The notes beneath the pieces are model-generated. The model saw only the letters and a list, made by a program, of their open reading frames with translations. It searched no databases and was not told the origin of the DNA. A DNA stretch of 64,000 bases from an uncultured Myxococcales bacterium (lineage in GTDB: Bacteria > Myxococcota_A > UBA9042), in NCBI GenBank assembly GCA_903840165.1, contig CAIMEY010000075.1, forward strand, positions 44,365-108,364, read 5' to 3'. Numbering within the stretch: position 1 is the first letter of the stretch; each line of letters opens with the position of its first letter. Of this stretch, positions 18,975 to 40,023 are shown in pieces. The position numbers and the translations under genes are program-made.

Positions 18975-19057
18975 GGCCTGGTCAAACTAGCCTTGGCGGA
19001 CGGAACTGGCAAGCGCGTCTGCAGGCGGGTATGCTGGCACCGCCTTTGGAGGTCCTC

Positions 19058-20875
19058 ATGGTCAGCCGTGCTATTTGCGTTATCCTGCTGCATTTACTGG
19101 TTATTCTTGGCATTGCGTCACCGGCCATGGCCGCGGACTGGCAGGCCCAGGCGACCGAGTTCTTGCAGGCGTACAATGCGAAATATGTAGGCTTAGTTAC
19201 GGTCGCCAACGCTGCGGAGTGGGCGGCAAGCACCAACGTTTCCAAGCAGACGGAAGACAAACGCACGCAGGCCGACGAAGCGCTGGCGATCTTTCGCGGC
19301 GATGTCAAAATCATCCAACAAACTAAGGAGTTGCTTGGCCACGCTGCTGCGCTGACGCCTAGTCAGGTCAGGCAGTTGCAAAAGGTGCTGCTCGGTGCGG
19401 CACAAAATCCTGCGACAATTCCAAAGGTTGTCAAAGAGCGGATCGAGGCGGAAAGCCGGCAGGCTTCGGTTCAAGACGGCTTTGTCTATTGCGCGCAAGC
19501 CAAGGCCGCCGATGGCAGTTGCGCAAAGCCGCTGATCGCCAATGATTTGGATGAGGTACTGCGCAATAGCCGCGACCTTAGCCAGCGGTTGCAAACGTGG
19601 AACCTCAGCAAGGAAATCGGCAAGCCCCTCAAGCCGGGCCTAGAGAAGCTGCAAAAGCTGCGCAATCAGATCGCGCGCGAGATGGGCTACTCGTCGTTTT
19701 TTGCCTTGCAGGTTGCGGAGTACGACATGACCGTGCCCGAGATGCTGGGCCTGCTCGATGGTCTGCTTGACGACATGCAGCCCCTGTACGACGCCCTGCA
19801 CACGTGGACTGCCCGAGAACTGGCGCGGCGTTACAGCGCGCAGGTGCCCAAGGGCTCTATCCCCGCGCATTGGTTGACCAATCGTTGGGCGCAGAACTGG
19901 GTGGCCTTGGCGCCCGGTGTGGACCTCGACCACTACTTTGCCGATCGCAAGCCCGAATGGATCGTTCAACAAGCTGAAAACTTTTACGTTTCGATGGGCA
20001 TGCCTAAGCTGCCTGCCACGTTTTGGCAGAAGTCGGACTTGTATCCGGTGCCGGCTGGCGAAAAGCGCAATAAAAACAGCCATGCTTCGGCGTGGCACAT
20101 GGACCTGGACCAGGACGTGCGGTCGCTGATGAGCGTGCAGCCCGACAGCGAATGGTTCTCCACCGCGCACCACGAATTAGGGCATATTTACTATTACTTG
20201 AGCTACAGTCGGCCCCAAGTCCCCGTGCTGTTGCGCGAAGGGGCCAACCGCGCTTTTCATGAAGGCATTGGCGAGTTGATCAGCATCGCCGCTACGCAGC
20301 TGCCCTACCTACAAGCCCAAGGGATTATTCCCAAAGATGCCAAGATCGACCAGAACGCTTGGCTGCTCAATGAGGCGCTCGAGCACACCGTGTCGTTTAT
20401 TCCCTGGTCGGCTGGCGTCATGACGCGCTTTGAATACGAGCTCTATGAGCACGACTTGCCGGCCGACAAGTGGCAGCAAACCTGGTGGAATCTTGTGGAA
20501 AAATACCAGAAGGTTTCCCCGCCCTCGGCCGATCGTCGCGGCGATCCGCTGGCTTGCGACGCGTGCACAAAGACGCATATCAATGATGACCCGGCGCAAT
20601 ACTACGACTACGCCATCGCCACCGTGCTGAAGTACCAACTGCACGCCTACATCGCCAAGAAGATCCTCAAGCAAGACCCGCACTTCTGCAATTACTACGG
20701 CAACAAGCAGGTGGGCGATTTCTTGCGGCACATTCTCGAACAAGGGGCGACCCGCGACTGGCGCGTGGTGCTGCAGGAAGCGACGGGCGAGCCCCTGTCG
20801 ACGCGGGCGATGGTCGAATACTTCGAGCCGCTGGGCCGTTGGTTAGAGGCGGAAAATGCCAAGGCTGCTAAGTAG
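19058..20875 (+). CDS. Peptidase M2 (angiotensin-converting-enzyme-like peptidyl-dipeptidase), secreted
   Basis: Zinc site HHELGHIYYY...HEGIGELIS matches ACE HHEMGHIQY...HEAIGD; ATG at 19058 follows GGAGG and starts signal peptide MVSRAICVILLHLLVILGIASPAMAADW. Confidence 0.8.
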   Translation: MVSRAICVILLHLLVILGIASPAMAADWQAQATEFLQAYNAKYVGLVTVANAAEWAASTNVSKQTEDKRTQADEALAIFRGDVKIIQQTKELLGHAAALTPSQVRQLQKVLLGAAQNPATIPKVVKERIEAESRQASVQDGFVYCAQAKAADGSCAKPLIANDLDEVLRNSRDLSQRLQTWNLSKEIGKPLKPGLEKLQKLRNQIAREMGYSSFFALQVAEYDMTVPEMLGLLDGLLDDMQPLYDALHTWTARELARRYSAQVPKGSIPAHWLTNRWAQNWVALAPGVDLDHYFADRKPEWIVQQAENFYVSMGMPKLPATFWQKSDLYPVPAGEKRNKNSHASAWHMDLDQDVRSLMSVQPDSEWFSTAHHELGHIYYYLSYSRPQVPVLLREGANRAFHEGIGELISIAATQLPYLQAQGIIPKDAKIDQNAWLLNEALEHTVSFIPWSAGVMTRFEYELYEHDLPADKWQQTWWNLVEKYQKVSPPSADRRGDPLACDACTKTHINDDPAQYYDYAIATVLKYQLHAYIAKKILKQDPHFCNYYGNKQVGDFLRHILEQGATRDWRVVLQEATGEPLSTRAMVEYFEPLGRWLEAENAKAAK

Positions 20876-22123: not shown

Positions 22124-22597
22124 TTACTTACAGCCGGAGCCGGTGCAGGAATTGCTGCATTTGCCGGAGCCCGTGCAGGTCGCCGTGCAGTCCTTGCTGC
22201 AACCGCTGAGGTCGCAAGCGCCGGTTCCCGAACAAGCCATCTTGCACGCATTTCCCGTGCAATTGAGCGTAGTTGTTCCGCTGCCGGTGCCGTAGACTTG
22301 GCATTTGCCGTCGCCGCCGCAGGCAAATTCGCAGGGGCCACTGCCGGCGCAGGTCAAGGTGCACGCTCCCTCAGGACACGCGTAACTACAAGGGCTTGAG
22401 TCCGTGCAGACGCAAGGCGTGCTGGGGTAGCAGGTGCGCACGCCTTGGGCGGTATTGACCTCGCATCCGCTGAGAATTGCCCAAAATCCAAGGACATAGA
22501 TGGGCAGGCCCAAGCCGAAAGCCCAGGATGGCTGACCATGGCCAAAGCGCCAGCGCCATAGGCCCCAAAGTACCTGTATCCACGGCAAACGGTTCAT
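22124..22597 (-). CDS. Small Cys-rich lipoprotein
   Basis: ATG 22597 after GGAGGA; signal/lipobox MNRLPWIQVLW...WAILSGC; C-terminal half with about 30 Cys (CTGSGKCSNSCTGSGCK); the longer ORF to 23017 is an artefact. Confidence 0.5.
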   Translation of the reverse strand: MNRLPWIQVLWGLWRWRFGHGQPSWAFGLGLPIYVLGFWAILSGCEVNTAQGVRTCYPSTPCVCTDSSPCSYACPEGACTLTCAGSGPCEFACGGDGKCQVYGTGSGTTTLNCTGNACKMACSGTGACDLSGCSKDCTATCTGSGKCSNSCTGSGCK

Positions 22598-22779: not shown

Positions 22780-24111
22780 GTGCGTCGCCTGATCGCCATG
22801 AGCTTGACCATTGTTGTCTTGGTGATCGCCAGCACCGTGGTGCTCTTTGTGCAACTTCGCCAATCGGCAGAGGAAACTCTGTTGGCCCGGGGCCTTGATC
22901 GCGCTTCGGCCCTGGCCATGGCCGCGCGAACGGTTGCGCCGGACGACGGCGTACTGCAGCGCCTTTCCTCGCAACTACTTGACACAACGGTGCTTCACTC
23001 CGTGGTGTTCGACCCAAGAGGCCAACCGCTGACGGCCGCCGATCCAGCCCCGGCCACAGTGGAGGAGGCGGCTACCATCGTTCAAGCCGTTCTGCAGTCT
23101 AACCATTGGCAAGTTCAGAAGAAAGAGGCATGGCTGGCCCTAGACGAATACCGCCTGTGGTACCCGCTGAACGCCGGGCCGGCTGCCGTTCAACTGCAGC
23201 CCGGGCCGCCGACGGGTGGGCCGCGGGTGCTGCTCTTGTCTCTCGACACGACGGCGGCGCAGGCCATGGTGCGCAAGGCGCAACTCCATGCATTTATGAT
23301 TACAGCACTTTTGGCCCTACTGCTGGCCCTGACCGTGCGCCAAGTGCGCCTGGACGCGCGGCAGCGGCAGCAGCGACAACAGCAAGAACAGCAAAGGCGC
23401 TTCTTGGAATTAGGACGTCTATCCGCGGTGTTGGCGCATGAGGTGCGCAATCCCCTGGGGGCCATCAAGGGATTTGCCCAGATCACCGCCGTGCGCTTTG
23501 ACGCCGACGACGACGCGCGGGCCGATATGGACGTAATTGTGAGTGAATGCGAGCGGTTAGAAAGGCTGGTGGAGTCCCTGCTGCGCTACGCCCGGCCTCT
23601 GAGCCTGCAAAGGCAGGCGACAGATGTTTCTGAATTGCTTGATCAAGTCGTCAAGTTGGCGCTGCCGGCCGCGGCAAGTCCGCAGCACACCGTTCACGTG
23701 GCCGTGGCGAGCGCGCCGGTGCTGGCCGACCTCGATCGGGCGCAGATGACCCAAGCCCTGATCAATATCGTGGGCAACGCGCTGCAAGCTATTGGTCCTC
23801 AAGGGGAAATCTGGGTATCGGCCTGGACCGAGGGTTCGACATTGTGGCTCGGGGTCGAAGATGATGGGCCCGGCATTGCGCCGGCGATTCGGCATGAAAT
23901 CTTCGAGCCTTACGTGACGAGCAAAGCCACTGGCACAGGCATCGGTCTAGCCATCACACTGCGCATCGTCCAGGCGCATGCCGGTGAAATCATTGTATTT
24001 GAACGCAATCCGCACGGCACACGCATGGTGGTGAGCCTGCCGAACGCTGTGCTCAGGGGTCAGTTGCCCCAAGCCTTAGCGGCGACCGTCAAGCCAGAGG
24101 TATCGACCTAG
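22780..24111 (+). CDS. Sensor histidine kinase (two TM segments, periplasmic sensor, HisKA + HATPase_c)
   Basis: H-box LSAVLAHEVRNPLGAIKGF, N/G boxes (NIVGNALQAI, DDGPGI, GTGIGLAI); Gln-rich coiled coil after TM2; GTG 22780 or ATG 22798 start. Confidence 0.8.
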   Translation: MRRLIAMSLTIVVLVIASTVVLFVQLRQSAEETLLARGLDRASALAMAARTVAPDDGVLQRLSSQLLDTTVLHSVVFDPRGQPLTAADPAPATVEEAATIVQAVLQSNHWQVQKKEAWLALDEYRLWYPLNAGPAAVQLQPGPPTGGPRVLLLSLDTTAAQAMVRKAQLHAFMITALLALLLALTVRQVRLDARQRQQRQQQEQQRRFLELGRLSAVLAHEVRNPLGAIKGFAQITAVRFDADDDARADMDVIVSECERLERLVESLLRYARPLSLQRQATDVSELLDQVVKLALPAAASPQHTVHVAVASAPVLADLDRAQMTQALINIVGNALQAIGPQGEIWVSAWTEGSTLWLGVEDDGPGIAPAIRHEIFEPYVTSKATGTGIGLAITLRIVQAHAGEIIVFERNPHGTRMVVSLPNAVLRGQLPQALAATVKPEVST

Positions 24112-24198: not shown

Positions 24199-25551
24199 AT
24201 GACCGAGACTTCGTCCACTGTTGACCAGGCAAAGGCGCGCTTGCTCGTCGTTGATGACCAGTCCGCTTTTCGCCGCCTGCTGCTCCGCATCCTTGCCGAG
24301 GCGGGCTACGAACTGTTTGAGGCGGCCGATGCGCAGACAGCCCTTGAAATGGCCAAGAAAAACGCCGTGGATGTGGTGATTACCGACATCCGCATGCCTG
24401 GGCAGGACGGCCACGGATTGCTTGCGAATCTGCGGCGCGACCTCCCGCAAACGCAAGTGATTTTGCTGACGGCCTACGGTTCGGTGCCCGATGCTGTGGA
24501 GGCGATGAAGCACGGTGCTTGTGACTATCTGACCAAACCTCTTGCCAATCCTGAGGAATTGAGATCGGCTGTTCAACGGGCCCTGCGTCATCGGCGGTCT
24601 TTGCAGGAGCCCCAAGCCCGGGGGCCTGATCCCGAATTGCAACTGGTTTGGGCCGATCCGCAGATGAAGCAAGTCTATGATTCTCTTGTGCGTTTGGCGC
24701 CGACCTCTGCCACGGTCCTACTGCAGGGGGAGACGGGCACGGGCAAGGAAGTGGTGGCGCGGACCTTGCATCAGCTATCCCCTCGTAAAAAGGAGGCTTT
24801 TGTTGCGGTCAATTGCGCCGCGCTGTCCGAAGGGCTGCTCGATTCCGAACTTTTTGGCCATGAGAAGGGGGCCTTCACTGGGGCGGACAGGCAGAGGCAG
24901 GGGCGCTTTGAACTGGCCAATGGCGGTACCCTGCTACTGGATGAAGTGGGCGAAATGAGTCCACTTCTGCAGGTCAAGCTGCTGCGGGTGCTGCAAGAGC
25001 GCAACGTCGTGCGCGTGGGCGGTCATGCCACCCTTGCTGTGGATGTGCGGGTCATTGCTGCGACGCACCGCGACCTGCAAGCAGCAGTGTTAGCAGGGAA
25101 TTTTCGCGAGGATCTCTACTATCGTCTGGCCGTCGTGCCCGTGCGGGTGCCGCCGTTACGGGAGCGTCGTGGCGATATCCTTGTGCTGGCGGAACATTTT
25201 CTGCAGCAACTCAGTCGCCGTTACGGTCGGCAACACATGGTGTTGGATGCTGAGGCGAAAAACGCTTTGCTTGCCTACGTTTGGCCGGGCAATGTGCGCG
25301 AACTCTACAATGTCATGGAGCGAGCCTTGGTCCTGACGACCGGTTCGGTGCTCGGGACTCAAAGCCTCAGCATGGACGGACAACTAGCTGTTTTACAGGC
25401 GGAAACGCCAGTCAACCTGCGCGACATGGAACGGCAGGCCATCCTGCGGGCCCTGGAGGAGTGCGGGGGAAATCGGCGAATGGCGGCGCAGCGGCTCGGC
25501 ATTGGCCTGCGGACTTTGCAGTACAAGCTCAACGACTATGAGTTGCGGTAG
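24199..25551 (+). CDS. Sigma54-dependent response regulator (NtrC family: REC + AAA+ sigma54-activator + Fis-type HTH)
   Basis: REC LLVVDDQSAFRRLL...DVVITDIRMPGQDG; Walker A GETGTGKEV; GAFTGA motif; C-terminal HTH RRMAAQRLGIGLRTLQYKL. Confidence 0.9.
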   Translation: MTETSSTVDQAKARLLVVDDQSAFRRLLLRILAEAGYELFEAADAQTALEMAKKNAVDVVITDIRMPGQDGHGLLANLRRDLPQTQVILLTAYGSVPDAVEAMKHGACDYLTKPLANPEELRSAVQRALRHRRSLQEPQARGPDPELQLVWADPQMKQVYDSLVRLAPTSATVLLQGETGTGKEVVARTLHQLSPRKKEAFVAVNCAALSEGLLDSELFGHEKGAFTGADRQRQGRFELANGGTLLLDEVGEMSPLLQVKLLRVLQERNVVRVGGHATLAVDVRVIAATHRDLQAAVLAGNFREDLYYRLAVVPVRVPPLRERRGDILVLAEHFLQQLSRRYGRQHMVLDAEAKNALLAYVWPGNVRELYNVMERALVLTTGSVLGTQSLSMDGQLAVLQAETPVNLRDMERQAILRALEECGGNRRMAAQRLGIGLRTLQYKLNDYELR

Positions 25552-25807
25552 GCGGCTGTGATTCAGCCGACTTCGATCGACGCCCCGAAGAACGCAGGTC
25601 ATAGCCGCCCAAGGCCTCGACATCGCGCTGGAAACTTGGACTTCCCCGTACCTCAAGTAGTCGCGCCATCCGCGAATCGAGACTGGCGGCCGCCGGGGTC
25701 GCCTCGCTAATGTCTATTTTTTAAGCATGTCGGAATTTCAATCACAACGCCACGCCCGCCCCTCCAGGTAGCCTCCAAAATTTCAAGCAGTTGTCGGATC
25801 GTTCTCT

Positions 25808-25823
25808 TGGCACGCCCCTTGCA
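25808..25823 (+). promoter_or_regulatory. Sigma54 (-24/-12) promoter TGGCAC-N5-TTGCA upstream of the MYXO-CTERM gene
   Basis: Exact match TGGCACgccccTTGCA about 75 nt upstream of the 25898 start, immediately downstream of the sigma54 activator gene; an unusual AT-rich tract with a T6 run lies upstream at 25700-25750. Confidence 0.65.
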
Positions 25824-25897
25824 TTTGCTGTGTACTCAGAGACAATCCTGCGCAGCCCGCCGACAGGGCTTCGCCCAGCACCCAGGGGGAATCGCTC

Positions 25898-28051
25898 ATG
25901 CGCTTACGAAAATTATTGCCAATCGTTAGTCTTTTCACAGTCCTTGCCGGAGCCCGCAGCGCCATGGCCTGTGGCGGTTGCTTTTCGCCACCGACCCCGC
26001 AATTGGACCAGACCGTGGTGCAGAACGCCGAGCGTGTGCTGTTCACCCGCGATGAACAGACAAAGGTTTCGCGGGTTTGGGTCGAGGTGCGCTACAGCGG
26101 CCTGGCCAAGGACTTCGGCTGGGTGCTGCCCCTGCCCAAGGTGCCCAAGGTCGGCGTCGGCTCCAAGGTACTCTTTGACGCACTGGACACGCGGATGGCG
26201 ATGCGCTACGCCATGGCCTATGCCCCTGCAGAGAATTGCCGAGGTACCTGGCAGGGTTGCAAGGACTATCCTATGGTGGGCGGCGGCGACTTTGCCGATG
26301 CCTCAGCCTCCGGTGCGGATGTGGCGGGCAGCGACACGTCCAAGAATGGCGGTGGGCCGGGCGTCGAGATTCTCGCTAGTGGCACCACGGGCCCCTATGA
26401 CTATACGGTGGTGCAAGGCGGCAATGCCGATGTGCTGTATACTTGGCTAAACACGCGCGGTTATGCCACGCCGGACAAGGCCAAACCCATCTTGCAGTCG
26501 CACATCACCAAGGGCGACGTCTTTGTTGCGGTCAAGCTGAGCAATGGCCAAGGCGTCGAAGCCATCCGCCCGATTACCTTGGAAATGGCCGACACCGAGG
26601 CCTGCGTGCCCCTGCGCTTGACGTCCATTGCCGCCGCCGATGATTTGGCGGTTGTGGTCACCATCGCCGGGCCGGGGCGAGCGATCGTTAAGAACCACCT
26701 GGATGTAGAGCCCAATCCCTTGCGCATGGCTCTTCTAAACGACCAAGGTACGCCCAACTACAATGGGACGTACATCCCGTGCAATCAGGATGGCCAGTAC
26801 TACTATAGCTGCCAGATTCCTACGAATCTCGCGCAGGTGCAGTCGGCCGCCATCGACGAGGCGGGAGGCCACGCTTTTGTCACCGAGGCGGCGTTCAAGG
26901 GCAGTGACCTGGGTAATCTCCTGAATATGTCTAAGAATTCGGCGGACTGGCTCGCCAAGGTCAAGAACCTCGATGACGTCGCCAACCAACTGGCCGTCGC
27001 CTCGGATTTTCCCGTGAATTCAGAGGTTGGCGATGCCCTCAGTCTGCCCTTGGCCCTGACGACGACCTTCCCGGGCGTCGATCCGGCCCAAGCGCTGGCT
27101 GACTTGCGCGCGTGTGGTCAGTACTGGCAGATGCCCCAGAGTCCAGAGTGCCAGCTTCCCGGCGGATTGGTGTTGACGCATGAGCAGTTGCAGGCCGTGG
27201 CAATCGATGGCGTCGGAGCGCAGACGGCGATGAAGGTGGGCATTATCGACCCCCTGTTCCTGGTTGGCGACCAGTTGGCTGCCGCGCCGATGCTGACCCG
27301 CCTGAGCATGCGCATTTCGCCCAGTGAAATGGACCGTGACCCCGTGTTTTCCTTCAACAGTTCTTTGCCGAAGGTGGACCCGACGCGGGTCATCCTTTCG
27401 AACCAAGTCTGCCTGGATGGCTGGGATACGGGCCCGCAAGCAACGCGCCTTTCCATCGACGGATTAGGTAGTTGGCTGTTCACGGGCAGCAACACCTTGG
27501 ACCCGCGATTTGTCAACGCGCCGACCGCGCTGTGGGTGCGTTTGCAGGACGAGACAGGGCCGGCCATCGACATCGCCACGGCACAGATCAGCCTGATTGA
27601 TACGGCGATCAAGGGCGCGCTGCCGGGCAAGGCCAGCCTGCCGGTAGACCTGAATGTGCAAAAAGGCAAGCCGTGGCAGGCACCTGCCTCAGACCTGATC
27701 GCGACCAAGCAAGGGCCCTGGCATTCGCCCGGTTCCTGGTGTGAGCCGCGGGCGGGCTGGGTGGACGGCAAGCCGGCCCCGAGTGAAACCGACCTGGATG
27801 CCGGCAGCACCGACGTGGCGGGTGATACGCAAGACACTAATTCTACAGGCACTGTCCCCGGCATTGATGCGGCGGGCGGCTGGACCGATGTGCATTCGCC
27901 CCAAGCCACAGCGGCAACTGGTGTTGCGGCGAGCGATAACAGTGGCTGCACCGCTGGGCGTACGCACCGCAGTCAATCCCTTGGATTGTTGATGATTTCT
28001 GGGCTGTTGGCGGCTGTAGTGCTGCGCCGTCGGCAACGCAAGGAGGCTTGA
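25898..28051 (+). CDS. Large secreted protein with N-terminal CGGCF motif (DUF2330-like?) and MYXO-CTERM-like C-terminal sorting tail
   Basis: Signal peptide MRLRKLLPIVSLFTVLAGARSAMACGGCF; C-terminus GCTAGRTHRSQSLGLLMISGLLAAVVLRRRQRKEA (Cys, hydrophobic span, basic cluster), as in the Myxococcales MYXO-CTERM sorting signal. Confidence 0.7.
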   Translation: MRLRKLLPIVSLFTVLAGARSAMACGGCFSPPTPQLDQTVVQNAERVLFTRDEQTKVSRVWVEVRYSGLAKDFGWVLPLPKVPKVGVGSKVLFDALDTRMAMRYAMAYAPAENCRGTWQGCKDYPMVGGGDFADASASGADVAGSDTSKNGGGPGVEILASGTTGPYDYTVVQGGNADVLYTWLNTRGYATPDKAKPILQSHITKGDVFVAVKLSNGQGVEAIRPITLEMADTEACVPLRLTSIAAADDLAVVVTIAGPGRAIVKNHLDVEPNPLRMALLNDQGTPNYNGTYIPCNQDGQYYYSCQIPTNLAQVQSAAIDEAGGHAFVTEAAFKGSDLGNLLNMSKNSADWLAKVKNLDDVANQLAVASDFPVNSEVGDALSLPLALTTTFPGVDPAQALADLRACGQYWQMPQSPECQLPGGLVLTHEQLQAVAIDGVGAQTAMKVGIIDPLFLVGDQLAAAPMLTRLSMRISPSEMDRDPVFSFNSSLPKVDPTRVILSNQVCLDGWDTGPQATRLSIDGLGSWLFTGSNTLDPRFVNAPTALWVRLQDETGPAIDIATAQISLIDTAIKGALPGKASLPVDLNVQKGKPWQAPASDLIATKQGPWHSPGSWCEPRAGWVDGKPAPSETDLDAGSTDVAGDTQDTNSTGTVPGIDAAGGWTDVHSPQATAATGVAASDNSGCTAGRTHRSQSLGLLMISGLLAAVVLRRRQRKEA

Positions 28052-28824
28052 TGGATCTGCGTGCTCGACTGGGGCTATTGGTGTGTAGTTTTAGCGCCTT
28101 AGCGTCGTGTAGCGGCGCTTCGACCCAAGCCGTGGCCCCTGCCCCAGTCCAGCCGCAACCGTCCGCACAGTGTCCGATGCACGCGGCCCATCATCCCTCC
28201 GCCGATGGTTCTGCGCCTGCCAATCCGCATAAAGCCCATGACATTCATCACCGTTTTGACGACCCAGCGCAGTGGGCACCGGTCTTTGACTCGGCCGACC
28301 GCGACGCTTGGCAAAAGGGCGATGCCGTCGTAGCAGCGCTGGGCCTGCCAGCTCAGGCTCGTGTGGCCGATGTTGGCGCAGCTACAGGCTATTTCTCGGT
28401 GCGCTTTGCCCGCGCTTTGCCCCAAGGACAAGTCTGGGGCACGGACATCGAACCGAGGATGGTCGATTACTTGCAAAAAAGGGCCGCGACCGAAGGTTTG
28501 CCCAATCTACACGCAGTGTTGACCAAGGCGACCGAGCCCGAACTGCCAGGGCCCATGGACGTGGTCTTCCTGTGCGACGTCTATCACCATTTGCAGGACC
28601 GCGTCGCCTGGTTCCACCATCTTCGCAAGTACTTAGCGCCGGGTGGTCGCCTCGTGATCGTCGACTTCACCTTGGGCAATATTCCGGTCGGACCGCCTGT
28701 GGCGCAGCGCATTGGCCCCGAGGCGATGGCCGCTGAACTAGCCCAGGCCGGTCTGGTCTTGCAGCGGCGGGACGATTCCCTCTTGCCATACCAGCACTTG
28801 CTTGTGTTTGTGGCGGCGCCGTAG
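28048..28824 (+). CDS. Class I SAM-dependent methyltransferase lipoprotein
   Basis: Lipobox LASCSG; motif I VADVGAATGYFSVRFA; post-I acidic residue; 4-nt overlap (ATGA) with the upstream gene. Confidence 0.75.
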   Translation: MMDLRARLGLLVCSFSALASCSGASTQAVAPAPVQPQPSAQCPMHAAHHPSADGSAPANPHKAHDIHHRFDDPAQWAPVFDSADRDAWQKGDAVVAALGLPAQARVADVGAATGYFSVRFARALPQGQVWGTDIEPRMVDYLQKRAATEGLPNLHAVLTKATEPELPGPMDVVFLCDVYHHLQDRVAWFHHLRKYLAPGGRLVIVDFTLGNIPVGPPVAQRIGPEAMAAELAQAGLVLQRRDDSLLPYQHLLVFVAAP

Positions 28825-28975
28825 GGTCGCGGCGCGCTTGCTCCTGCCAAATCCGCACGCACGTGCAAATCTTGCACTGCCGGCGGCATCGGCATGGCCC
28901 AACTCGACCCAAGCGCATTTACTCAACTTGTTGAAAAATAAGCTATTTGCGCATTCTTGTGCTCAAGCGATGAAT

Positions 28976-28991
28976 TGGCACGGACCTTGCT
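28976..28991 (+). promoter_or_regulatory. Sigma54 (-24/-12) promoter TGGCAC-N5-TTGCT upstream of the PqqD-like / ATP-grasp operon
   Basis: Exact TGGCACggaccTTGC about 50 nt upstream of the GTG start at 29040; second such promoter within 3.2 kb downstream of the NtrC-like gene. Confidence 0.65.
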
Positions 28992-29039
28992 TCTATCCTG
29001 ATCAGGCACCACGTTTCGGGGCCAGCAGGAAAGCGCACC

Positions 29040-29288
29040 GTGTACGAACACTTGGCACTCAGCGATTCAGGCTTTCTCTTCGACACGCGGACGGGGAACA
29101 CCTATACCCTTAGCAAAACAGGCACTTTTCTGTTGCGCACCCTGATTGCTGGCGGGACGTGGCAGGAACTTCCGACCCAGCTTGCCGCCACCTATGAGGT
29201 GGACGACGAGACAGCTCGGCGCGATGTGGAACAATTCTCCTTTCGTTTGAAAGACTTGGGTCTAGTCGCGCCGGAGGTCGGCTCATGA
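29040..29288 (+). CDS. PqqD-family peptide-chaperone protein (RiPP recognition-element-like), 82 aa
   Basis: GTG start after AGGAAAG; YEHLALSDSGFLFDTRTGNTYTLSKTGTFLLRTLIAGGTWQELPTQLAATYEVDDETARRDVEQFSFRLKDLGLV follows the PqqD profile (flfd..g..y.LN.tg..iw.l..g.t..ei...l...y.v....a..Dv..f...L...gli). Confidence 0.6.
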   Translation: MYEHLALSDSGFLFDTRTGNTYTLSKTGTFLLRTLIAGGTWQELPTQLAATYEVDDETARRDVEQFSFRLKDLGLVAPEVGS

Positions 29289-30343
29289 AGCCCTGCACCA
29301 TCGCGGTCACCGGGCTCAATGCGACCGACAATCCGGGACCGGGCGTGCCGGTCATTCGCGCAATTCGCCAAGCAAATCCCAACTGTACGATTGTCGGCCT
29401 TGGCTATGATGCCCTGGACCCGGGTGCCTACATGGAGGGCATTGCCGACCACGTCTACCTCATGCCATTTCCGTCCCAAGGCGCTGAAGTTGTTGGGCAA
29501 CGCCTGGCAGCGATTCACGCGCAGACGCCTATCGATGTGCTGATTCCTACGCTTGATTCCGAACTAGCCCCCTACATCAAGCTTGAGCCGGTGCTCCGTG
29601 GCATGGGCATTGCGACCTACCTGCCCAGCGCTGAGGGCCTGCAACTGCGCGCCAAGGATAAGCTTTCGGCCCTGTCGGCCAAGGGCGTGCGCGTGCCCAA
29701 GAGCGTGACCTTGACCGATGCGACCGCCATCGCCCAACTCGACCAGCACATCGAGTTCCCGGTGATGGTCAAAGGGCAGTTCTACGAGGCGTTCATCGCC
29801 TACTCGCCTATGGAAGTACATAGTCATTTCGAACGGTTGCGTGCCAAGTGGGGGCTGCCCGTGGTGCTGCAGGCTTACGTGCCCGGCACTGAGTACGACA
29901 TCACGGCGGTGGGCGATGGCCAAGGGGGGCTGGTGGGCTCGGTGGCCATGAAGAAGATGCAGCTCACCGATAAAGGCAAAGCGTGGGGCGGGGTTACCAT
30001 AGCCGATCCCCAACTGGACGCCTTCGTTGCCTTGACGATGGCGGCCCTGCAGTGGCGGGGGCCGTGCGAGCTGGAAGTGATGCGCGCCAAGGATAGCGGT
30101 GAGTGCTATCTTATTGAAATTAATCCGCGTTTTCCGGCCTGGGTCTATCTCACAGTCGGCGCTGGGCGCAACTTGCCCTGGGCAACAGTGCAACTGGCCT
30201 TGGGGCAAGCGGTCGCACCGATGCCGCCGGCTCCGGCAGGAATCCTGTTTCTACGTCACAGTTTAGATCAAGTCTGCGCGATGGCGGACTTTCAGGCCCT
30301 GACCACGGTGGGGGAACTGCACCGCAAGGAGACCGAGCAATGA
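29285..30343 (+). CDS. ATP-grasp family ligase
   Basis: ATP-grasp fold blocks VMVKGQFYEAF, QAYVPGTEYDITAV, ECYLIEINPRFPAW (E-x-N-x-R catalytic motif); ATGA overlap with the PqqD-like gene. Confidence 0.8.
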   Translation: MKPCTIAVTGLNATDNPGPGVPVIRAIRQANPNCTIVGLGYDALDPGAYMEGIADHVYLMPFPSQGAEVVGQRLAAIHAQTPIDVLIPTLDSELAPYIKLEPVLRGMGIATYLPSAEGLQLRAKDKLSALSAKGVRVPKSVTLTDATAIAQLDQHIEFPVMVKGQFYEAFIAYSPMEVHSHFERLRAKWGLPVVLQAYVPGTEYDITAVGDGQGGLVGSVAMKKMQLTDKGKAWGGVTIADPQLDAFVALTMAALQWRGPCELEVMRAKDSGECYLIEINPRFPAWVYLTVGAGRNLPWATVQLALGQAVAPMPPAPAGILFLRHSLDQVCAMADFQALTTVGELHRKETEQ

Positions 30344-31689
30344 CGCGTCTAGCCTATGAAAAACCAACGATTTTGCGACACAATGCCGCCCTAGCCAACA
30401 AGTTCGGTCGCGCGCCAGGCGTGCGGGCCCTCGAGCGAATTGATGGCGTTAAAGTCCTTGATTTGGTGGCGCAATTTGGTAGTCCGCTCTTTGTCTATTC
30501 CGAACACCGTCTGCGCCGCGCCTACCGCGAGGCGTACCGGGCCTTTTCCCAGCGCTACCCCAAGGTTCAGTTTGCCTGGTCCTATAAGACTTTGTATCTA
30601 GACGCAATTTGCCGTATTTTTCATCAGGAAGGGGCCTGGGCCGAAGTTGTCTCGGAGTATGAATACCAAATGGCGCGGGCCTTGGGCATTGCTGATGCGC
30701 ACATCCTGTTCAATGGCCCCTACAAGCCGGAGAAAGACCTGGAAGTTGCCCTACTTGGCGGAGCACGGGTGCACATTGACCACTACGAAGAACTGTACGC
30801 GGCCGAGCGAATTGCCCGCAAAGCCGGCAGAAAGATTGGTGTTACCCTGCGGATCAGCCTTGACGCTGGCATCCATCCGCGCTGGGACCGCTTTGGCTTT
30901 AACCTGGAAAATGGCGAAGCCCTGGACGCCGCCCGACGCATACACAGTGGTGGGCACCTGACCCTGCAGGGTTTGCATTGCCACATCGGCACTTACATCG
31001 CCGATCCGAGCGCGTACGGTCGTATGGCGGCCAAGCTGGCGGCCCTCGCCCTGCAAGTGCGGCGGGAGACCGGCATGCTGGTGGAAAGTCTTGATTGCGG
31101 CGGCGGTTTTGCCTCCCGCGCGACCTTGCACGCCCAGTATACGCCGGGCGTGGATGCGACGCCGCCCGTGGATGACTATGCCGAAGCCATCAGCCGTGCC
31201 ATCCTCGAGGCGGGCTTTGCCCCCAGTGAACTGCCTACTTTGTTTCTGGAAACGGGTAGGGCGCTGGTCGATGAGGCGGGCTTTCTACTGACCCGCGTCG
31301 TCGGCAACAAGCGCCTGGCCGATGGCACGCGGGCTGTGATTGTCGACGCGGGCGTCAACGTCCTGTTTACGTCGTTTTGGTACCGACACGACGTGTTGCC
31401 GGCCGAGGATCGCGGGGGAATGCTTGAAGATACAGTCGTCTATGGCCCACTGTGCATGAACATTGACGTGGTGCGGCCGTCGGTGCAACTGCCTCCCCTG
31501 GAGGCTGGGGATACCCTGGTGGTCAGGCCGGTTGGCGCGTACAATGTCACCCAATCCATGCAATTTATTCGACTAAGGCCGGCGGTCATCCTTCTAGGCG
31601 AAAAGGGCGAAATCGACGTCATTCGCCGCGCCGAGGAGCTAGCAGACCTCAAGGGTCCAGAGTTCTTGCCTAAACGTTTGACTTCGTAG
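30340..31689 (+). CDS. Group IV PLP-dependent decarboxylase (Orn/DAP/Arg decarboxylase family, LysA-like)
   Basis: FGSPLFVYSEHRLR, PLP-lysine block FAWSYKTLY, HCHIGT, LDCGGGFAS, ETGRALVDEAG, C-terminal GAYNVTQSMQF all match the LysA/SpeC family; ATGA overlap with the ATP-grasp gene. Confidence 0.85.
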   Translation: MTRLAYEKPTILRHNAALANKFGRAPGVRALERIDGVKVLDLVAQFGSPLFVYSEHRLRRAYREAYRAFSQRYPKVQFAWSYKTLYLDAICRIFHQEGAWAEVVSEYEYQMARALGIADAHILFNGPYKPEKDLEVALLGGARVHIDHYEELYAAERIARKAGRKIGVTLRISLDAGIHPRWDRFGFNLENGEALDAARRIHSGGHLTLQGLHCHIGTYIADPSAYGRMAAKLAALALQVRRETGMLVESLDCGGGFASRATLHAQYTPGVDATPPVDDYAEAISRAILEAGFAPSELPTLFLETGRALVDEAGFLLTRVVGNKRLADGTRAVIVDAGVNVLFTSFWYRHDVLPAEDRGGMLEDTVVYGPLCMNIDVVRPSVQLPPLEAGDTLVVRPVGAYNVTQSMQFIRLRPAVILLGEKGEIDVIRRAEELADLKGPEFLPKRLTS

Positions 31690-31835
31690 GGTTTCTAGCG
31701 ATCTGGGGCGATTGTGCCATGGTCCAGCGCTGGCTCCAGTGACGCAGGCCGGACCATGGCGCAGTCCATACCCGCAGAGTTTTGAGATTGATGAACGATT
31801 CCAGTTCGCTTGCTTAGGTAGATTTCGGGGCCTTG

Positions 31836-34073
31836 ATGCCGCAACGCTATCCCACAGTGCTTCCTGCCGCCGCCGAGTCGCAGCTCGACATGGGCTCTGC
31901 TCGCGTGGCGATCGCAGAAAATGTGCGCAATAATAGGGTATTAGCGGCCATGCGCTGGCTGGGCGACGAAGTGCTGGCTGTCTACGGCTTAGTGCTCTTT
32001 GGTGCGCCGCTGCACGCTTCGGTCTTGCTGTTGGCCGCAACTTGGGTGGCCGGCGTGCCCAGTGCGGCCTTGGGGTTGCTGAGTCTGCTGCTGGCTCAGG
32101 GGCTTGCAAGGGTGCTACTGCCCAATTCCTCAGTCTCAGAGCGCAATTGGCTGGCATGCAACGCCCTACTGACGGGCCTCTATCTGGGCGCGCTTTATGC
32201 GCCGAACCTGACCCTGCTGGCGCTCGCGGCCATGGTGACGCTGGCGGGGGTGCTCTTGGCCGCCGCGCTCAGGTCTCTGGTCGATCGATACCTTGGGATT
32301 CCCTTGTTATCGCTGCCTTTTGTTGTAGCCAGCTGGGGAGCGCTTTTGCTGGCGCGCCATTTCCCAGGCCTGCCCTTGGCCAAAGCCGCGCTGGCTGAGC
32401 CGTTGTCGCTGCCGCTGAGCGATGGCCCCCGCGAAATCCTGAGGCTCCTTGCCGCAATCTTCATGCAAAACAGCGCAGTTGCCGGCCTGTTGGTGGGTCT
32501 GGCGTGGCTGTTGTGGTCGCGTTGGAGCCTGATCCTGGCTCTGCTGGGAATCCTCAGTGGGCAGGCGATCTTGGCACTGCTTGGTGGGACGCATACCGGT
32601 ACGGAGTTGGCCCACGTCGGCTTCAACGCGGCGCTTGTGGCGGTGGCCTGTGGTGGTGTTTTTGTCGTTCTTTCAAAGTCTTCCCTGATCGCTGCCTGTC
32701 TTGCCGGTGCCTTGGCGACCCTGCTGGGCATCGCTTTGCAAGGAGCGCTGCTGCCCTTGAACCTGCCCGTGCTCGCGGCGCCTTTTGTCTTGTTGACGCA
32801 AGGACTTCTCTTGGCGCTGCACGGCCGGCTGGGCTCTGGTCCTTTGCAACTGGTGCTTGGGCCACCCCTGCGGCCAGAAGACAATCTTCATCAGGTGTTG
32901 CAGAGCGCGCGCCGCTATCCGCCGGTTGGCATGCCTCTGCTGTACTTGCCTGTGCTTGGGCGTTGGCGCGTGACCCAGGGCCCGCGGGGCGCTTTGACCC
33001 ATCAGGGACAGTGGGCCCATGCCTGGGATTTTGAAGTCGAAAACGACCAAGGCGAGCGATTTCGCGGTGAGGGCCAGGCCGTTCAGGACTTCTATGCTTG
33101 GGGAGCGCCGGTGGTGGCTCCGGGCGATGGACGGGTGGTGCGTGTGATAAATCATCTGGAAGATCAAGAGATTGGCCACGTCGACTTGGCCCACAACTGG
33201 GGCAATATGGTGGTCGTGGCCCACAGCGGCGGCGTATTCTCGGCCCTGAGCCACTTGCAGCAGGGCAGCATCGGCGTGCACGAGGGTCAAACCGTCGTTC
33301 GCGGCGAAGTCCTTGGACGCGTAGGCAATTCGGGCCGATCGCCAGTGCCCCATCTGCACGTCCAGGTGCAAGCGTCAGCCGAGGTGGGCGCGCCGACTCT
33401 GCCCGCCCAGTTCCTCCATTTTCTGCAAATCGCAGTCGATGAGCAGAGTTATCAAACCTGCGGCAGCCCTCAAACCGGTGCGCTTCTGCAGTCTCTAGCG
33501 ACCCAGTCGAGTACAGCCCGCGCTTTCGCCTTTGCGCCAGGCACGCAAATTCACTGGCTTATTCACGGTCAGCAGTTGGGACCACCGCGGCGAGAGACGT
33601 GGTCCAGTGAACTCGATGCCCTGGGCCGCCGGACTTTGAAGTCCAACGGCGCTGCTGCCTCGATTTACATCGACGATTCCTATGCCACTGTGCTGGATTA
33701 CACCGGCCCAGCCGACACCTTGCTGGCCATGTACGCGGTGGCGGCGGCGCGTGTGCCCTTCGCAGCGGCCGACGGCGTGACTTGGCACGACAGTCCGTCC
33801 ATTCTGGCCCATCTGTCCAAACCCGTTAGGATTCTACTTGAATTGCTGATGCCCTTTGGTGCCCAGACGGGGGTTCCCACGCACTCCCGGCTCATGCAGG
33901 GCAGCGATGGCACCTTGGTGCTCGAGACCAAGATCCGCCGCCCGCACCGGCTCATGCGCGCCAAACAACTGCCGGATCGCTTGCAGTTGCTGGTGCAGCC
34001 TGGCGTGGGCCCCACGGCGTTGCGCGCCTATCGCGGCGACCTCTTGTGCCTGGATGCTGAGGTAACACTTTGA
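31836..34073 (+). CDS. Polytopic urea-transporter-like membrane domain fused to M23 (LytM-type) metallopeptidase domain plus C-terminal unknown domain
   Basis: About 330 aa of TM helices containing UT-like half-repeat motifs (FMQNSAVAG; HVGFNAALVAVACGG); M23 motifs HQGQWAHAWDF...HVDLAHNWGNMVVVAH...VGNSGRSPVPHLHVQV; possible TTG start at 31833. Confidence 0.7.
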   Translation: MPQRYPTVLPAAAESQLDMGSARVAIAENVRNNRVLAAMRWLGDEVLAVYGLVLFGAPLHASVLLLAATWVAGVPSAALGLLSLLLAQGLARVLLPNSSVSERNWLACNALLTGLYLGALYAPNLTLLALAAMVTLAGVLLAAALRSLVDRYLGIPLLSLPFVVASWGALLLARHFPGLPLAKAALAEPLSLPLSDGPREILRLLAAIFMQNSAVAGLLVGLAWLLWSRWSLILALLGILSGQAILALLGGTHTGTELAHVGFNAALVAVACGGVFVVLSKSSLIAACLAGALATLLGIALQGALLPLNLPVLAAPFVLLTQGLLLALHGRLGSGPLQLVLGPPLRPEDNLHQVLQSARRYPPVGMPLLYLPVLGRWRVTQGPRGALTHQGQWAHAWDFEVENDQGERFRGEGQAVQDFYAWGAPVVAPGDGRVVRVINHLEDQEIGHVDLAHNWGNMVVVAHSGGVFSALSHLQQGSIGVHEGQTVVRGEVLGRVGNSGRSPVPHLHVQVQASAEVGAPTLPAQFLHFLQIAVDEQSYQTCGSPQTGALLQSLATQSSTARAFAFAPGTQIHWLIHGQQLGPPRRETWSSELDALGRRTLKSNGAAASIYIDDSYATVLDYTGPADTLLAMYAVAAARVPFAAADGVTWHDSPSILAHLSKPVRILLELLMPFGAQTGVPTHSRLMQGSDGTLVLETKIRRPHRLMRAKQLPDRLQLLVQPGVGPTALRAYRGDLLCLDAEVTL

Positions 34074-35200
34074 AGTATTTACAGTTTCAACGATGCCTTG
34101 TGCCAAGCCTCTTGGTCGCCTCAGCGATGGCAGCTGTGCCCGCCTGGGCCGACCCGCTGCCGGCGGTCACGCAACCGGAATTGCCGCCGCCGCAACTGGA
34201 ACAGGCTGACTCAACGTCCGCGCAGCCCGCCCCAGTCGCAGTGCCGGCGACGATCACGCCAAGCGACGCGGGCGAAAAAGTCTATGACGGCAGTGCTTTG
34301 CCTCCCTTCTCCCCGCCCACCCACGAGGCTCCGCTGCCGGCCTTTGCCCCCTTCGATGCGCCGGCCGCTGTCCCTGCGCCTGTCGCAGAAGTGCTTGAAC
34401 ATCCGCCGGTTTGCTCGGGCGGGACGGTCGCGCCCGTTGCCACGTGGCATCCCCACGCCAGTCTGTGGGCGACGCAGTTTCAGTATACCAATCCGTGGAA
34501 TCTTTCTAAGATTCAAGCAGTTTCCCTGGTTGCAGGGGCCGATGCGCCCGGGGGCGGTTGGTGGCTTGCCTCGGCGCAATCGCAGACCGGTCTGCGCTAC
34601 CAAACGAGTGATTTTCGCCAAGATCACAATGTGGTAGGCGGCTACCTGCGCTGGGGACTCTGGCAAGCCGAGGCCGTTCTTGGGCAGGCCTGGACAACAG
34701 CTAGCGATACGGACGGCGCGCGTCTGGGCCAGTTGGGCATAGGCTGGCAGTCGCCGCAATTTGCCGCGCATTTGTCTGCGAGTGCTGTCCGTTATAGCGC
34801 TAGAACTACAGCACAAATCGACCCGAAGCTGTCCTATTTCACCCGCTGGCTCGACCTGTCCCTGGCCGGCCAGGTGCAGACCATTGACGACAACGGTCAG
34901 ACCACCGATTGGCTGGGTTCCGCAGCAATTGCAGCAAATTGGCGTCCCTGGACTCAGGTGAGCGCGACCGCCTTGGGCTGGTACGGGCGGCGGCAATGGC
35001 AGGTCGATGCCCAGGGTGCGTCGCTTTGGAGCAATAATGACCTATTTATAGGCGGTTACCGTATCGAGCTGCGCTACCAGTCTCGCGCTTGGTGGGGGCT
35101 GAGCGCGGTATGGCTGGATGATTTTGGCCGTCAGCAGAATGCCCTGAGTCACAGTTTTCAAGTTCGAGGCGCCACACTGGGGGCCCGCTTTCAGTTCTAA
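34070..35200 (+). CDS. Outer-membrane beta-barrel protein with Pro-rich N-terminal linker
   Basis: Signal peptide MKYLQFQRCLVPSLLVASAMAAVPAWA; alternating hydrophobic strands; C-terminal aromatic residue (ARFQF) typical of BAM substrates; ATGA overlap with the upstream gene. Confidence 0.6.
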   Translation: MKYLQFQRCLVPSLLVASAMAAVPAWADPLPAVTQPELPPPQLEQADSTSAQPAPVAVPATITPSDAGEKVYDGSALPPFSPPTHEAPLPAFAPFDAPAAVPAPVAEVLEHPPVCSGGTVAPVATWHPHASLWATQFQYTNPWNLSKIQAVSLVAGADAPGGGWWLASAQSQTGLRYQTSDFRQDHNVVGGYLRWGLWQAEAVLGQAWTTASDTDGARLGQLGIGWQSPQFAAHLSASAVRYSARTTAQIDPKLSYFTRWLDLSLAGQVQTIDDNGQTTDWLGSAAIAANWRPWTQVSATALGWYGRRQWQVDAQGASLWSNNDLFIGGYRIELRYQSRAWWGLSAVWLDDFGRQQNALSHSFQVRGATLGARFQF

Positions 35201-35271
35201 TAACCAGACGATGTCGTCCGCCGCCCAGGGCGTTACGGCTCGCACAGCACAGCCAACCCACGGAGACTCGA

Positions 35272-35925
35272 ATGCTGCCCTCGCAACGCTCATGGAATCG
35301 AAAAATCCTCGTATTTTCAGCATTCTCCTGCCTCATGTCGGCTCCGGGCTCTGCCCAAGGGCCTACCCCTGCGGACCGGGTCGCAGCCTTGTTCGAGTCG
35401 TCATTTGCCTATGAAGCCAAGGGCAATAGCAGCAAGGCCCTTGCCGACACGCAGGAAATTCTGCAACTGCAGCCAAGTCACTACGTGGCTAATTTACGAG
35501 CAGGATGGCTGGCTTATGCAACTCAACGCTACGAAGAATCGCTCAATCACTACAACCGTGCGGCGGAGTTGGCACCGCGCGCCGTTGAACCCCAGCTCGG
35601 CGTGCTCTTGCCGTTGATGGCCCTAAAGCGTTGGCCTCAGGCTGAGACGATTGCCAAAGGAATTCTCGCTGTTGTTCCGCGCAATTACTTGGCCAGCAGT
35701 CGCCTGGCATTCACCGAGTTTTCGCTGGCCCACTACCGGCAAGCCGAAGGGCTCTATGCCCAAGTACTCAGCGATTATCCAGGCGATTTAGAGATGATGC
35801 TGGGTCTGGGCTGGACCCAGGTGCGCCTGGGCAAGAAGGATGATGCCCGGGCTGGATTTACGCAAGTTCTTGGTATTAGTCGACAAAATGCCAGTGCAAA
35901 GGCCGGCTTGGAGGCTTGCAAATGA
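35272..35925 (+). CDS. Secreted TPR-repeat protein
   Basis: Signal-like N-terminus; TPR-type Ala/Leu/Tyr periodicity (ALADTQEILQLQPSHYVANLRAGWLAYATQRYEESLNHYNRAAELAP). Confidence 0.6.
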   Translation: MLPSQRSWNRKILVFSAFSCLMSAPGSAQGPTPADRVAALFESSFAYEAKGNSSKALADTQEILQLQPSHYVANLRAGWLAYATQRYEESLNHYNRAAELAPRAVEPQLGVLLPLMALKRWPQAETIAKGILAVVPRNYLASSRLAFTEFSLAHYRQAEGLYAQVLSDYPGDLEMMLGLGWTQVRLGKKDDARAGFTQVLGISRQNASAKAGLEACK

Positions 35926-39949: not shown

Positions 39950-40023
39950 GCGGCGCGCCCCCTTGAAACTAGAAGCAAACGCAGTAGCTCGGACCCGCAA
40001 GGAACTTCGGGTTAGAGGTCCTA
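39950..40023 (-). repeat. Copy 2 of the ~65-80 nt element abutting a stop codon (degenerate hairpin arm)
   Basis: 86% identity to 7689-7757; its terminal CTA is again the TAG stop (minus strand) of the upstream gene (40021..42888); also sits 50 nt after the convergent helicase stop. Confidence 0.6.

Follow-up and report, generated by a model that had tools for sequence, protein, structure and literature searches.

Among the described systems closest to the locus analysed here are the two-component pairs AtoS/AtoC, NtrB/NtrC and ZraS/ZraR and the NtrC-like activators of Myxococcus xanthus. NtrC-type enhancers can act over kilobases, and the upstream activator sequence of the NifA type reads TGT-N10-ACA. 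In Escherichia coli, AtoC has two sites, GCTATGCAGAAATTTGCACA and an inverted partner, which span -184 to -144 (PMC3118216). The NtrC-like activators of M. xanthus bind tandem short repeats; for one of them, Nla28, the half-site is CT(C/G)CG(C/G)AG and the targets are mostly intragenic, and the sigma-54 consensus applied to this organism is TGGCACG-N4-TTGCW (PMC9765219).

Here we describe a locus in a window of 64 kb, the whole stretch of DNA analysed, from an uncultured member of the Myxococcota, in which the genes of a sensor histidine kinase and an NtrC-family activator are followed on the same strand by two sigma-54 promoters, P1 and P2. A sequence-only reading had joined these elements into a compact local regulon. 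In our analysis, the locus makes more sense as a single regulator-target pair into which a module with its own regulation has been inserted, and we consider it fairly likely that it comprises two separate sigma-54 control units arranged head to tail, with the local activator acting on P2 and a different activator on P1.

The kinase and activator pair

The sensor histidine kinase (22780..24111, + strand; HisKA and HATPase_c in Pfam) has, by eye, two predicted transmembrane segments around a periplasmic domain of ~145 aa, and its H-box reads AHEVRNPL. The gene that follows (24199..25551, + strand) encodes an NtrC-family sigma-54 activator of the response-regulator type, matching Response_reg, Sigma54_activat, AAA_lid_14 and HTH_8. 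It combines an N-terminal receiver (PF00072), an AAA+ domain (PF00158, E = 1e-70) with the loop EKGAFTGA and the Walker A motif GETGTGKE, and a C-terminal Fis-type helix-turn-helix (PF02954), the last of which is kept in the orthologues. Judged by these domains and motifs, the activator has every part required for sigma-54 activation. Its best NCBIfam match is AtoC (E = 6e-136, 454 bits) and that of the kinase is ZraS, with the activator scoring below the equivalog cut-offs for AtoC (454 vs 714), NtrC (434 vs 559) and ZraR (416 vs 760). The 64 kb window has no further activator or kinase gene, and none of its ORFs that were scanned was identified as rpoN.

Two sigma-54 promoters

P1 (TGGCACgccccTTGCA, 25808-25823, + strand) and P2 (TGGCACggaccTTGCt, 28976-28991, + strand) are exact -24/-12 matches, with coordinates as reported earlier; in both, the GG and GC doublets stand exactly 10 nt apart within TGGCAC-N5-TTGC, and each agrees with the extended consensus TGGCACG-N4-TTGCW at 12/12 specified positions. 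Both are intergenic, share the strand of the gene that follows and precede a start codon with a Shine-Dalgarno-like sequence. From the end of the motif to the start codon we measured 75 nt for P1 (ATG at 25898) and 49 nt for P2 (GTG at 29040), and we infer transcription start sites at ~25834 and ~29002, respectively. The earlier description of both promoters as lying immediately downstream of the kinase/activator pair holds for P1, 257 nt past the activator stop codon, but not for P2, which is 3.4 kb off. No terminators or sigma-70 promoters were found in the two intergenic regions, and the leaders gave no Rfam match to a riboswitch or other RNA element at E values up to 1. An origin of P1 and P2 by duplication of a promoter region was rejected, as only the 16-nt motif is common to both regions.

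The exact sequence TGGCAC-N5-TTGC occurs three times in the 64-kb window, compared with 0.53 occurrences expected. The third copy (48847, + strand) was rejected as a promoter, being antisense to the minus-strand ORF that encloses it (47778-49010) and followed by no supported + strand gene, and it fits the chance expectation for the window. A near-match, TGGCGCGGACCTTGCA at 24755, falls inside the activator gene on VARTLH codons (frame read by eye) and was treated as coding-imposed. Considering that one exact match in the window evidently arose by chance, P1, P2 or both might be such matches without promoter function as well. We regard this as very improbable, since P1 and P2 are intergenic, have the right orientation and spacing to a start codon, and are conserved across many orthologous loci. 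A sigma-54 motif (≥11/12 positions) 20-200 nt upstream was found in 14/54 loci anchored on PqqD, where 0.09 were expected, and in 11/39 loci anchored on DUF2330, where 0.18 were expected, and 16 loci keep the equivalent of P2, 53-97 nt before PqqD. The sequence-only reading had named lack of conservation in orthologous loci as a result that would speak against its proposal, and both motifs turned out to be conserved; in many orthologous loci, the flanking sequence varies while the motif stays at the equivalent position. On these sequence criteria, P1 and P2 both behave as genuine, conserved sigma-54 promoters.

The PqqD/ATP-grasp operon and its candidate enhancer

P2 precedes an operon of six genes (29040..35925, + strand; Pfam and NCBIfam annotation), all on the + strand, encoding a PqqD-like protein (29040-29288), an ATP-grasp enzyme (29285-30343), an FslC/LysA-like PLP decarboxylase (30340-31689), a fusion of a urea-transporter-like domain with an M23 peptidase (31833-34073), an unknown protein (34070-35200) and a TPR protein (35272-35925). 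Among solved structures, N-citrylornithine decarboxylase 7kh2 is the one closest to the decarboxylase. The order of the six genes recurs in 80 loci spread over Myxococcota, Desulfobacterota, Bacteroidota, Spirochaetota and Elusimicrobia. The conserved intergenic gaps of the cluster look too small for a precursor peptide gene, as a RiPP-type pathway, with a PqqD-like recognition element and a modifying enzyme, would call for. A literature search for the cassette or for DUF2330 found nothing.

Upstream of P2 we found the palindrome GTGCA-N5-TGCAC, which we term UAS-A, in two copies 19 bp apart. The proximal copy (GTGCAAATCTTGCAC, 28863-28877, 23.5 bits) is a perfect palindrome located 99-113 nt upstream of the -24 element of P2 and is the sole exact occurrence in the window, and the distal copy (CTGCCAAATCCGCAC, 28844-28858, 13.3 bits) is degenerate. 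In the orthologous promoters, UAS-A is present in two to three tandem copies with a spacing of 19-34 bp, always just upstream of the sigma-54 motif. In a leave-one-out analysis UAS-A was significant in 15/17 promoters, and in 14 of these promoters 0/200 shuffles scored as high. The element co-occurs only with sigma-54 motifs and is absent from PqqD loci that have none. In two loci (L008, L025), a UAS-A pair with a sigma-54 motif also precedes other genes adjoining the activator orthologue. Between UAS-A and P2 lies an A/T-rich stretch (28921-28936, 65-75% A+T) with one-mismatch matches to WATCAANNNNTTR on both strands, a weakly supported IHF-like element and possible DNA-bending site. Two sequences similar to TGCA-N5-TGCA that precede the kinase gene (22144 and 22186) were rejected as enhancers, being located, as read by eye, in a Cys-rich minus-strand ORF in which no Pfam family was found.

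The regulator genes accompany the operon in related loci. In L001-L008, the activator is preceded by an orthologue of the kinase (39-53% identity), and kinase/activator orthologues are found directly upstream of PqqD in seven loci (L001, L002, L004, L005, L006, L008 and L015), where the activator orthologues preceding PqqD are 55-68% identical to the one described here. The local two-component system thus appears, on synteny and UAS-A, very probably to control the PqqD/ATP-grasp operon, and this half of the earlier proposal that one system switches on both gene sets is upheld. We propose the UAS-A pair (28844-28877) as the site of the local activator; this assignment is made by co-localisation, because the Fis-type helix-turn-helix is alike in many activators.

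The DUF2330/methyltransferase module

P1 precedes two genes. The first (25898..28051, + strand; PF10092) encodes a secreted DUF2330 protein with a MYXO-CTERM-like C-terminal sorting signal, a borderline call with 19.9 bits against TIGR03901 at a cut-off of 20. In its homologues (P0121-P0240) the Cys and the Arg-rich tail are invariant, and JGI names homologues MYXO-CTERM proteins. The second (28051..28824, + strand; Methyltransf_12/25/11) encodes a SAM-dependent methyltransferase of 257 aa, as predicted by gene callers; its N-terminus resembles a lipoprotein signal (LASC), and it has a His-rich linker. Among the loci in which DUF2330 genes occur elsewhere (L081-L131), the methyltransferase was not found beside DUF2330.

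What lies between activator and PqqD varies: nothing in L001, L004, L005 and L006, a B12-radical-SAM gene in L003 and L007, a vWA protein gene in L008, and DUF2330 with the methyltransferase in the window only. Because none of the 80 orthologous loci (L001-L080) has this last pair, we interpret it as an insertion in the window. A recent foreign origin of the insertion was rejected, as its GC and GC3 are not distinctive.

The regulatory elements of P1 also differ from those of P2. No UAS-A was detected within 260 nt of P1, where the best match reaches 2.1 bits and is equalled by 60% of shuffles. At many DUF2330 promoters elsewhere there is a different upstream element, about TGTTGAAAAATTCAACACA, which we term UAS-B; elements of this type occur together with a sigma-54 motif at DUF2330 promoters in L081-L124. 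The window has a UAS-B-like element (TGTCGGAATTTCAATCACA, 25728-25746) 62-80 nt upstream of the -24 element of P1, identified by weight matrix, which may be the site of a different activator. With the full matrix it scores 15.8 bits, the best score in the window; in the leave-one-out analysis the score is a moderate 10.5 bits, reached by 3/200 shuffles (p ~0.015), with a matrix seeded by a consensus chosen by eye and with shuffles that kept base composition only. Promoters of the P1 type are found at only ~1/4 of DUF2330 homologues, and P0122, the closest homologue recovered with its context (60% identical), has none. No cognate activator for UAS-B is consistently present near DUF2330 genes.

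The sequence-only reading had the local system activating P1 as well as P2, which would call either for sites at P1 that went unrecognised or for looping from UAS-A. Because NtrC-type enhancers can act over kilobases, it is conceivable that UAS-A, at 28.86 kb, also serves P1 across a distance of 3 kb. The short distance from the activator gene to P1, the lack of another activator in the window, the equally good consensus matches of P1 and P2, and the example of L008, in which an activator orthologue can have more than one nearby target, are all consistent with such an arrangement. However, UAS-A is missing near P1, and the sole nearby one-mismatch version of TGCA-N5-TGCA, TGCG-N5-TGCA at 25508, was rejected as an enhancer, because the conserved helix-turn-helix codons for LRTLQYK dictate its sequence (frame by eye); the conservation of these codons is also why the match recurs in orthologues. 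In addition, the orthologous activator-PqqD loci all lack the DUF2330/methyltransferase pair, and DUF2330 promoters elsewhere have UAS-B, with no linked orthologue of the kinase/activator system. We therefore judge common control of both promoters by the local system to be unlikely. P1 is most likely driven by another activator whose gene lies outside the window, to judge from the distribution of the two enhancer types, and the DUF2330/methyltransferase half of the earlier proposal is not borne out. Because the inserted pair at the first promoter has its own, different enhancer, the locus as a whole reads, on gene content and motifs, as an ordinary regulator-target pair split by an insertion that carries its own promoter and enhancer.

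A model of two control units

In the arrangement that we favour, the first, ancestral unit would start with the membrane kinase, which would phosphorylate the NtrC-type activator. The activator would then bind the tandem GTGCA-N5-TGCAC sites and from there contact sigma-54 RNA polymerase at P2, perhaps with the aid of bending in the A/T-rich stretch. Using ATP, it would open P2 and switch on the six-gene PqqD operon. In the second unit, the DUF2330 and methyltransferase genes would have been inserted between the activator gene and UAS-A, arriving with their own promoter P1 and the UAS-B-type element.

As the methyltransferase gene is not followed by an evident terminator, transcripts from P1 may read through into the PqqD operon. 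If P1, driven by a second activator, were in this way the main route to PqqD operon expression in this lineage, P2 and UAS-A could be a decaying remnant. The absence of a terminator-like structure between the methyltransferase stop codon and PqqD would suit this explanation, as would the single perfect and single degenerate UAS-A of the window, given that several orthologues have two to three strong copies. A remnant would be expected to have decayed, however, whereas P2 retains all 12 consensus positions and the proximal UAS-A is perfect and identical to that of L001 and L005, and we consider this explanation improbable.

Implications and comparison with known systems

The findings tentatively point to two unexplored regulons, one comprising the six-gene cassette under a dedicated kinase/activator pair and enhancer in one clade of Myxococcota, and the other comprising DUF2330 genes with UAS-B. 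If this were true, the cassette may serve to build or modify an amine or peptide conjugate associated with the envelope, with the enhancer as a handle for its induction, and the secreted DUF2330/MYXO-CTERM family would constitute a separate sigma-54 regulon with its own enhancer and its own activator. An uncharacterised two-component system in uncultured Myxococcota gains a testable target and a likely DNA site, GTGCA-N5-TGCAC, and a cassette found in several phyla could now be induced experimentally. The locus also illustrates that an activator gene near a sigma-54 promoter is no proof of a regulon, as here the inserted module apparently comes with a promoter and an enhancer of its own.

Mechanistically, the regulation proposed here is textbook. 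With NtrB/NtrC-glnA and ZraS/ZraR the locus shares the receiver-AAA+(GAFTGA)-Fis-type helix-turn-helix architecture, tandem dyad-symmetric sites and a -24/-12 promoter, but the enhancer sequence differs and the target genes have no relation to nitrogen or zinc. The NtrC-like activators of M. xanthus, such as Nla28 with its kinase Nla28S, likewise come from a Myxococcota lineage and use sigma-54 promoters of the form TGGCACG-N4-TTGC(T/A), as found here. Unlike the situation with Nla28, both promoters described here are intergenic, and the sequences of UAS-A and UAS-B differ from its half-site. The UAS-B consensus, TGTTGAAAAATTCAACA, resembles the NifA site in its TGT...ACA outline, its A/T-rich centre and its position ~60-110 nt upstream of the -24 element, but its spacing is TGT-N11-ACA and the window has neither a nif context nor a NifA-like activator; we take this resemblance as a lead only.

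The AtoS/AtoC-atoDAEB system of E. coli offers a further parallel. There, as here, the genes of a kinase and an NtrC-family regulator precede a sigma-54 target operon, directly so in ato, whereas in the window a 3.3 kb insertion parts the regulator from its target. The ato target operon serves short-chain fatty-acid catabolism, to which the PqqD/ATP-grasp operon is unrelated, and the half-sites are spaced as TGCA-N6-TGCA in ato compared with TGCA-N5-TGCA here. The ato enhancer and the candidate enhancer here are both made up of a pair of adjacent palindromes rich in TGCA...TGCA, located ~100-190 nt upstream.

Two sigma-54 promoters downstream of an activator gene

The sequence-only reading had placed two exact sigma-54 motifs downstream of a kinase/activator pair, and both are confirmed on the + strand: P1, the promoter before the DUF2330 gene, reads TGGCACgccccTTGCA (25808-25823), and P2, before the PqqD operon, reads TGGCACggaccTTGCt (28976-28991). 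Each matches 12 of 12 specified positions of the extended consensus TGGCACG-N4-TTGCW, as applied to Myxococcus xanthus (PMC9765219), and both are intergenic, 75 nt (P1) and 49 nt (P2) ahead of start codons provided with Shine-Dalgarno-like sequences. The core TGGCAC-N5-TTGC occurs exactly three times in the window versus 0.53 expected from shuffles; with one mismatch it occurs 12 times versus 10 expected, and because this latter count is close to expectation, only exact matches carry information. The third exact match (48847-48861, +) lies within the minus-strand ORF 47778-49010, antisense to the portion that codes for its N-terminal signal peptide; downstream of the match, no supported gene was found on the + strand, and we judged it to be the single chance hit predicted by the background. 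A near-consensus motif (11/12), TGGCGCGGACCTTGCA at 24755-24770 (+), was also rejected, as it lies within the activator gene on VARTLH codons and the coding sequence probably imposes it; its spacer, GGACC, is also that of P2. Neither of the two intergenic regions contains a terminator-like structure, a sigma-70-like promoter or an Rfam family. IHF-like matches, which are weak evidence for candidate bending sites, occur in both.

All genes of the locus are on the + strand. A membrane histidine kinase (22780-24111) precedes the activator (24199-25551), which has receiver, AAA+ and Fis-type helix-turn-helix domains with GAFTGA and Walker A motifs; no further activator, kinase or rpoN gene was found within the 64-kb window. 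The secreted DUF2330 protein (25898-28051) scores 19.9 bits at its C-terminus on the MYXO-CTERM model, for which the cut-off is 20. In the SAM methyltransferase (28051-28824), the SAM-binding fold is preceded by a signal peptide resembling those of lipoproteins (…SALASC) and by a stretch rich in His; export, if real, would be odd for a SAM-dependent enzyme. The cassette then comprises a PqqD-like protein (29040-29288), an ATP-grasp enzyme (ATPgrasp_Ter, 29285-30343), an FslC/LysA-like PLP decarboxylase (30340-31689) whose nearest solved relative is N-citrylornithine decarboxylase, a single protein (31833-34073) in which a urea-transporter-family membrane domain is fused to an M23 peptidase domain, with ~230 additional residues matching no family, an unknown protein (34070-35200) and a TPR protein (35272-35925). 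Elsewhere the window encodes a fused reductase/acyltransferase beside an FAD-linked oxidase (8907-13657, -), which resemble myxobacterial ether-lipid genes, an angiotensin-converting-enzyme-like M2 peptidase (18845-20875, +) and a protein of 955 aa that carries Cys-rich repeats of the Dictyostelium type (40021-42888, -).

Conservation of the cassette, its probable regulator and P2

Anchoring the comparison on homologues of the ATP-grasp protein (alignment A1) recovered 80 genome loci, spanning Myxococcota, Desulfobacterota, Bacteroidota, Spirochaetota and Elusimicrobia. The order ATP-grasp, decarboxylase, urea-transporter/M23 and TPR is kept in 80/80 loci, and a PqqD gene is detectable in most; the urea-transporter/M23 fusion persists across this whole range. 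No curated family names the cassette, and literature searches turned up no paper about either the cassette or DUF2330. The closest relatives carry kinase and activator orthologues (activator identity 55-68%) upstream of PqqD; these directly adjoin it in L001, L002, L004, L005, L006, L008 and L015 and are separated from it by a gap in L003 and L007. A sigma-54 motif is present 53-97 nt ahead of PqqD in 16 loci. Conservation in orthologous loci, on which the sequence-only reading depended, holds for P2, with a motif of at least 11 of 12 positions before PqqD in 14/54 loci versus 0.09 expected. Outside one Myxococcota clade, most cassette loci lack the promoter.

The aligned P2-type upstream regions contain the palindrome GTGCA-N5-TGCAC, a candidate enhancer that we term UAS-A. 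A leave-one-out weight matrix found it in 15/17 promoters, in 14 of which none of 200 shuffles scored as well. It forms two to three tandem copies, 19-34 bp apart and always at most ~190 nt upstream of the -24 element, and was not found at PqqD loci without a sigma-54 motif. The window carries a perfect copy at 28863-28877, the sole exact one in 64 kb, and a degenerate copy 19 bp upstream of it (28844-28858). Many TGCA-rich pseudo-matches to UAS-A at 22124-22597 (-) are due to the Cys codons of a small secreted Cys-rich ORF, without a Pfam match, between the kinase and the gene upstream. Extra pairs of UAS-A with a sigma-54 motif lie beside activator orthologues in L008 (17292-17435), ahead of a 1059-aa lipoprotein gene, and in L025 (4452-4580), ahead of a small Gly-rich secreted ORF, so that an orthologue of the activator can have multiple targets close by. 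Activator orthologues share a conserved helix-turn-helix, and the distribution of UAS-A is the pattern expected of the local activator's own predicted binding site.

The interval between activator and PqqD differs by lineage. It is empty in L001, L004, L005 and L006; in L003 (2297-9401) and L007 (3416-5509) it is occupied by a B12-binding radical-SAM gene that overlaps the activator stop codon and is accompanied in L003 by a Fic protein and an IS110 transposase; and in L008 (8013-9233) a vWA protein is encoded there. Only in the window is it filled by the DUF2330 and methyltransferase genes, which are absent from 80/80 ATP-grasp-anchored loci. Whatever the cargo, UAS-A and P2 always remain beside PqqD, and hence the DUF2330/methyltransferase pair is inserted DNA that separates the activator gene from its enhancer.

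P1 and a distinct upstream element

Using DUF2330 homologues as the anchor (alignment A2), we recovered 51 metagenome loci, none of which has the methyltransferase or an adjacent orthologue of the local two-component system. The P1 motif is conserved too: at least 11/12 positions are matched in 11/39 loci with enough upstream sequence versus 0.18 expected, including the closest homologues (53-56% identity), with three of the 11 being near-identical. A 60% identical homologue in a PriA-DUF2330-DsbA context has no sigma-54 motif, and the P1-type promoter is limited to a subset of DUF2330 loci rather than universal.

These promoters have in common UAS-B (approximately TGTTGAAAAATTCAACACA), a candidate enhancer that differs from UAS-A and often occurs as two tandem copies 57-106 nt ahead of the -24 element. 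It was significant in 10-11 of 12 promoters in leave-one-out tests, for which the matrix was seeded with a consensus picked by eye and the shuffles kept base composition only. UAS-B was not found at DUF2330 loci without a sigma-54 motif, and across 1.68 Mb of fetched sequence the two are paired at DUF2330 genes only; in L100 (1820-7938), where a MORN-repeat gene lies between two DUF2330 paralogues, the first paralogue alone has the promoter and UAS-B pair. The top UAS-B match of the window (25728-25746, 15.8 bits) is moderate by leave-one-out (10.5 bits, 3/200 shuffles as good). Upstream of P1, the best UAS-A score was 2.1 bits, equalled by 60% of shuffles, and motif searches also gave no match; UAS-A may still act on P1 long-range, from 3 kb away.

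Proposed mechanism

The proposal that the local activator drives both promoters is partly supported: a conserved UAS-A and a linked regulator favor it for P2, and it falters at P1, which lacks UAS-A and whose DUF2330/methyltransferase genes are missing from the cassette loci. We infer all binding and transcription steps of two units. In unit 1, the kinase would signal to the activator, which would bind UAS-A and activate P2 and thus the PqqD operon. Unit 2 would be the inserted, separately regulated DUF2330/methyltransferase module, with P1 driven via UAS-B by an activator probably encoded elsewhere. The units may be coupled, because no terminator is evident and P1 transcription may read through into the PqqD operon. 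The locus would provide a clean target assignment for the local activator, a warning that adjacency is not sufficient grounds for defining a regulon, and an entry point to a conserved cassette without an assigned function.

The locus belongs to a well-known kind of system, and the layout closest to the classical arrangement of unit 1 is that of AtoSC-atoDAEB. The paired sites of E. coli AtoC, GCTATGCAGAAATTTGCACA at -184 to -144 (PMC3118216), resemble UAS-A, although the spacing is TGCA-N6-TGCA in ato and TGCA-N5-TGCA in UAS-A.
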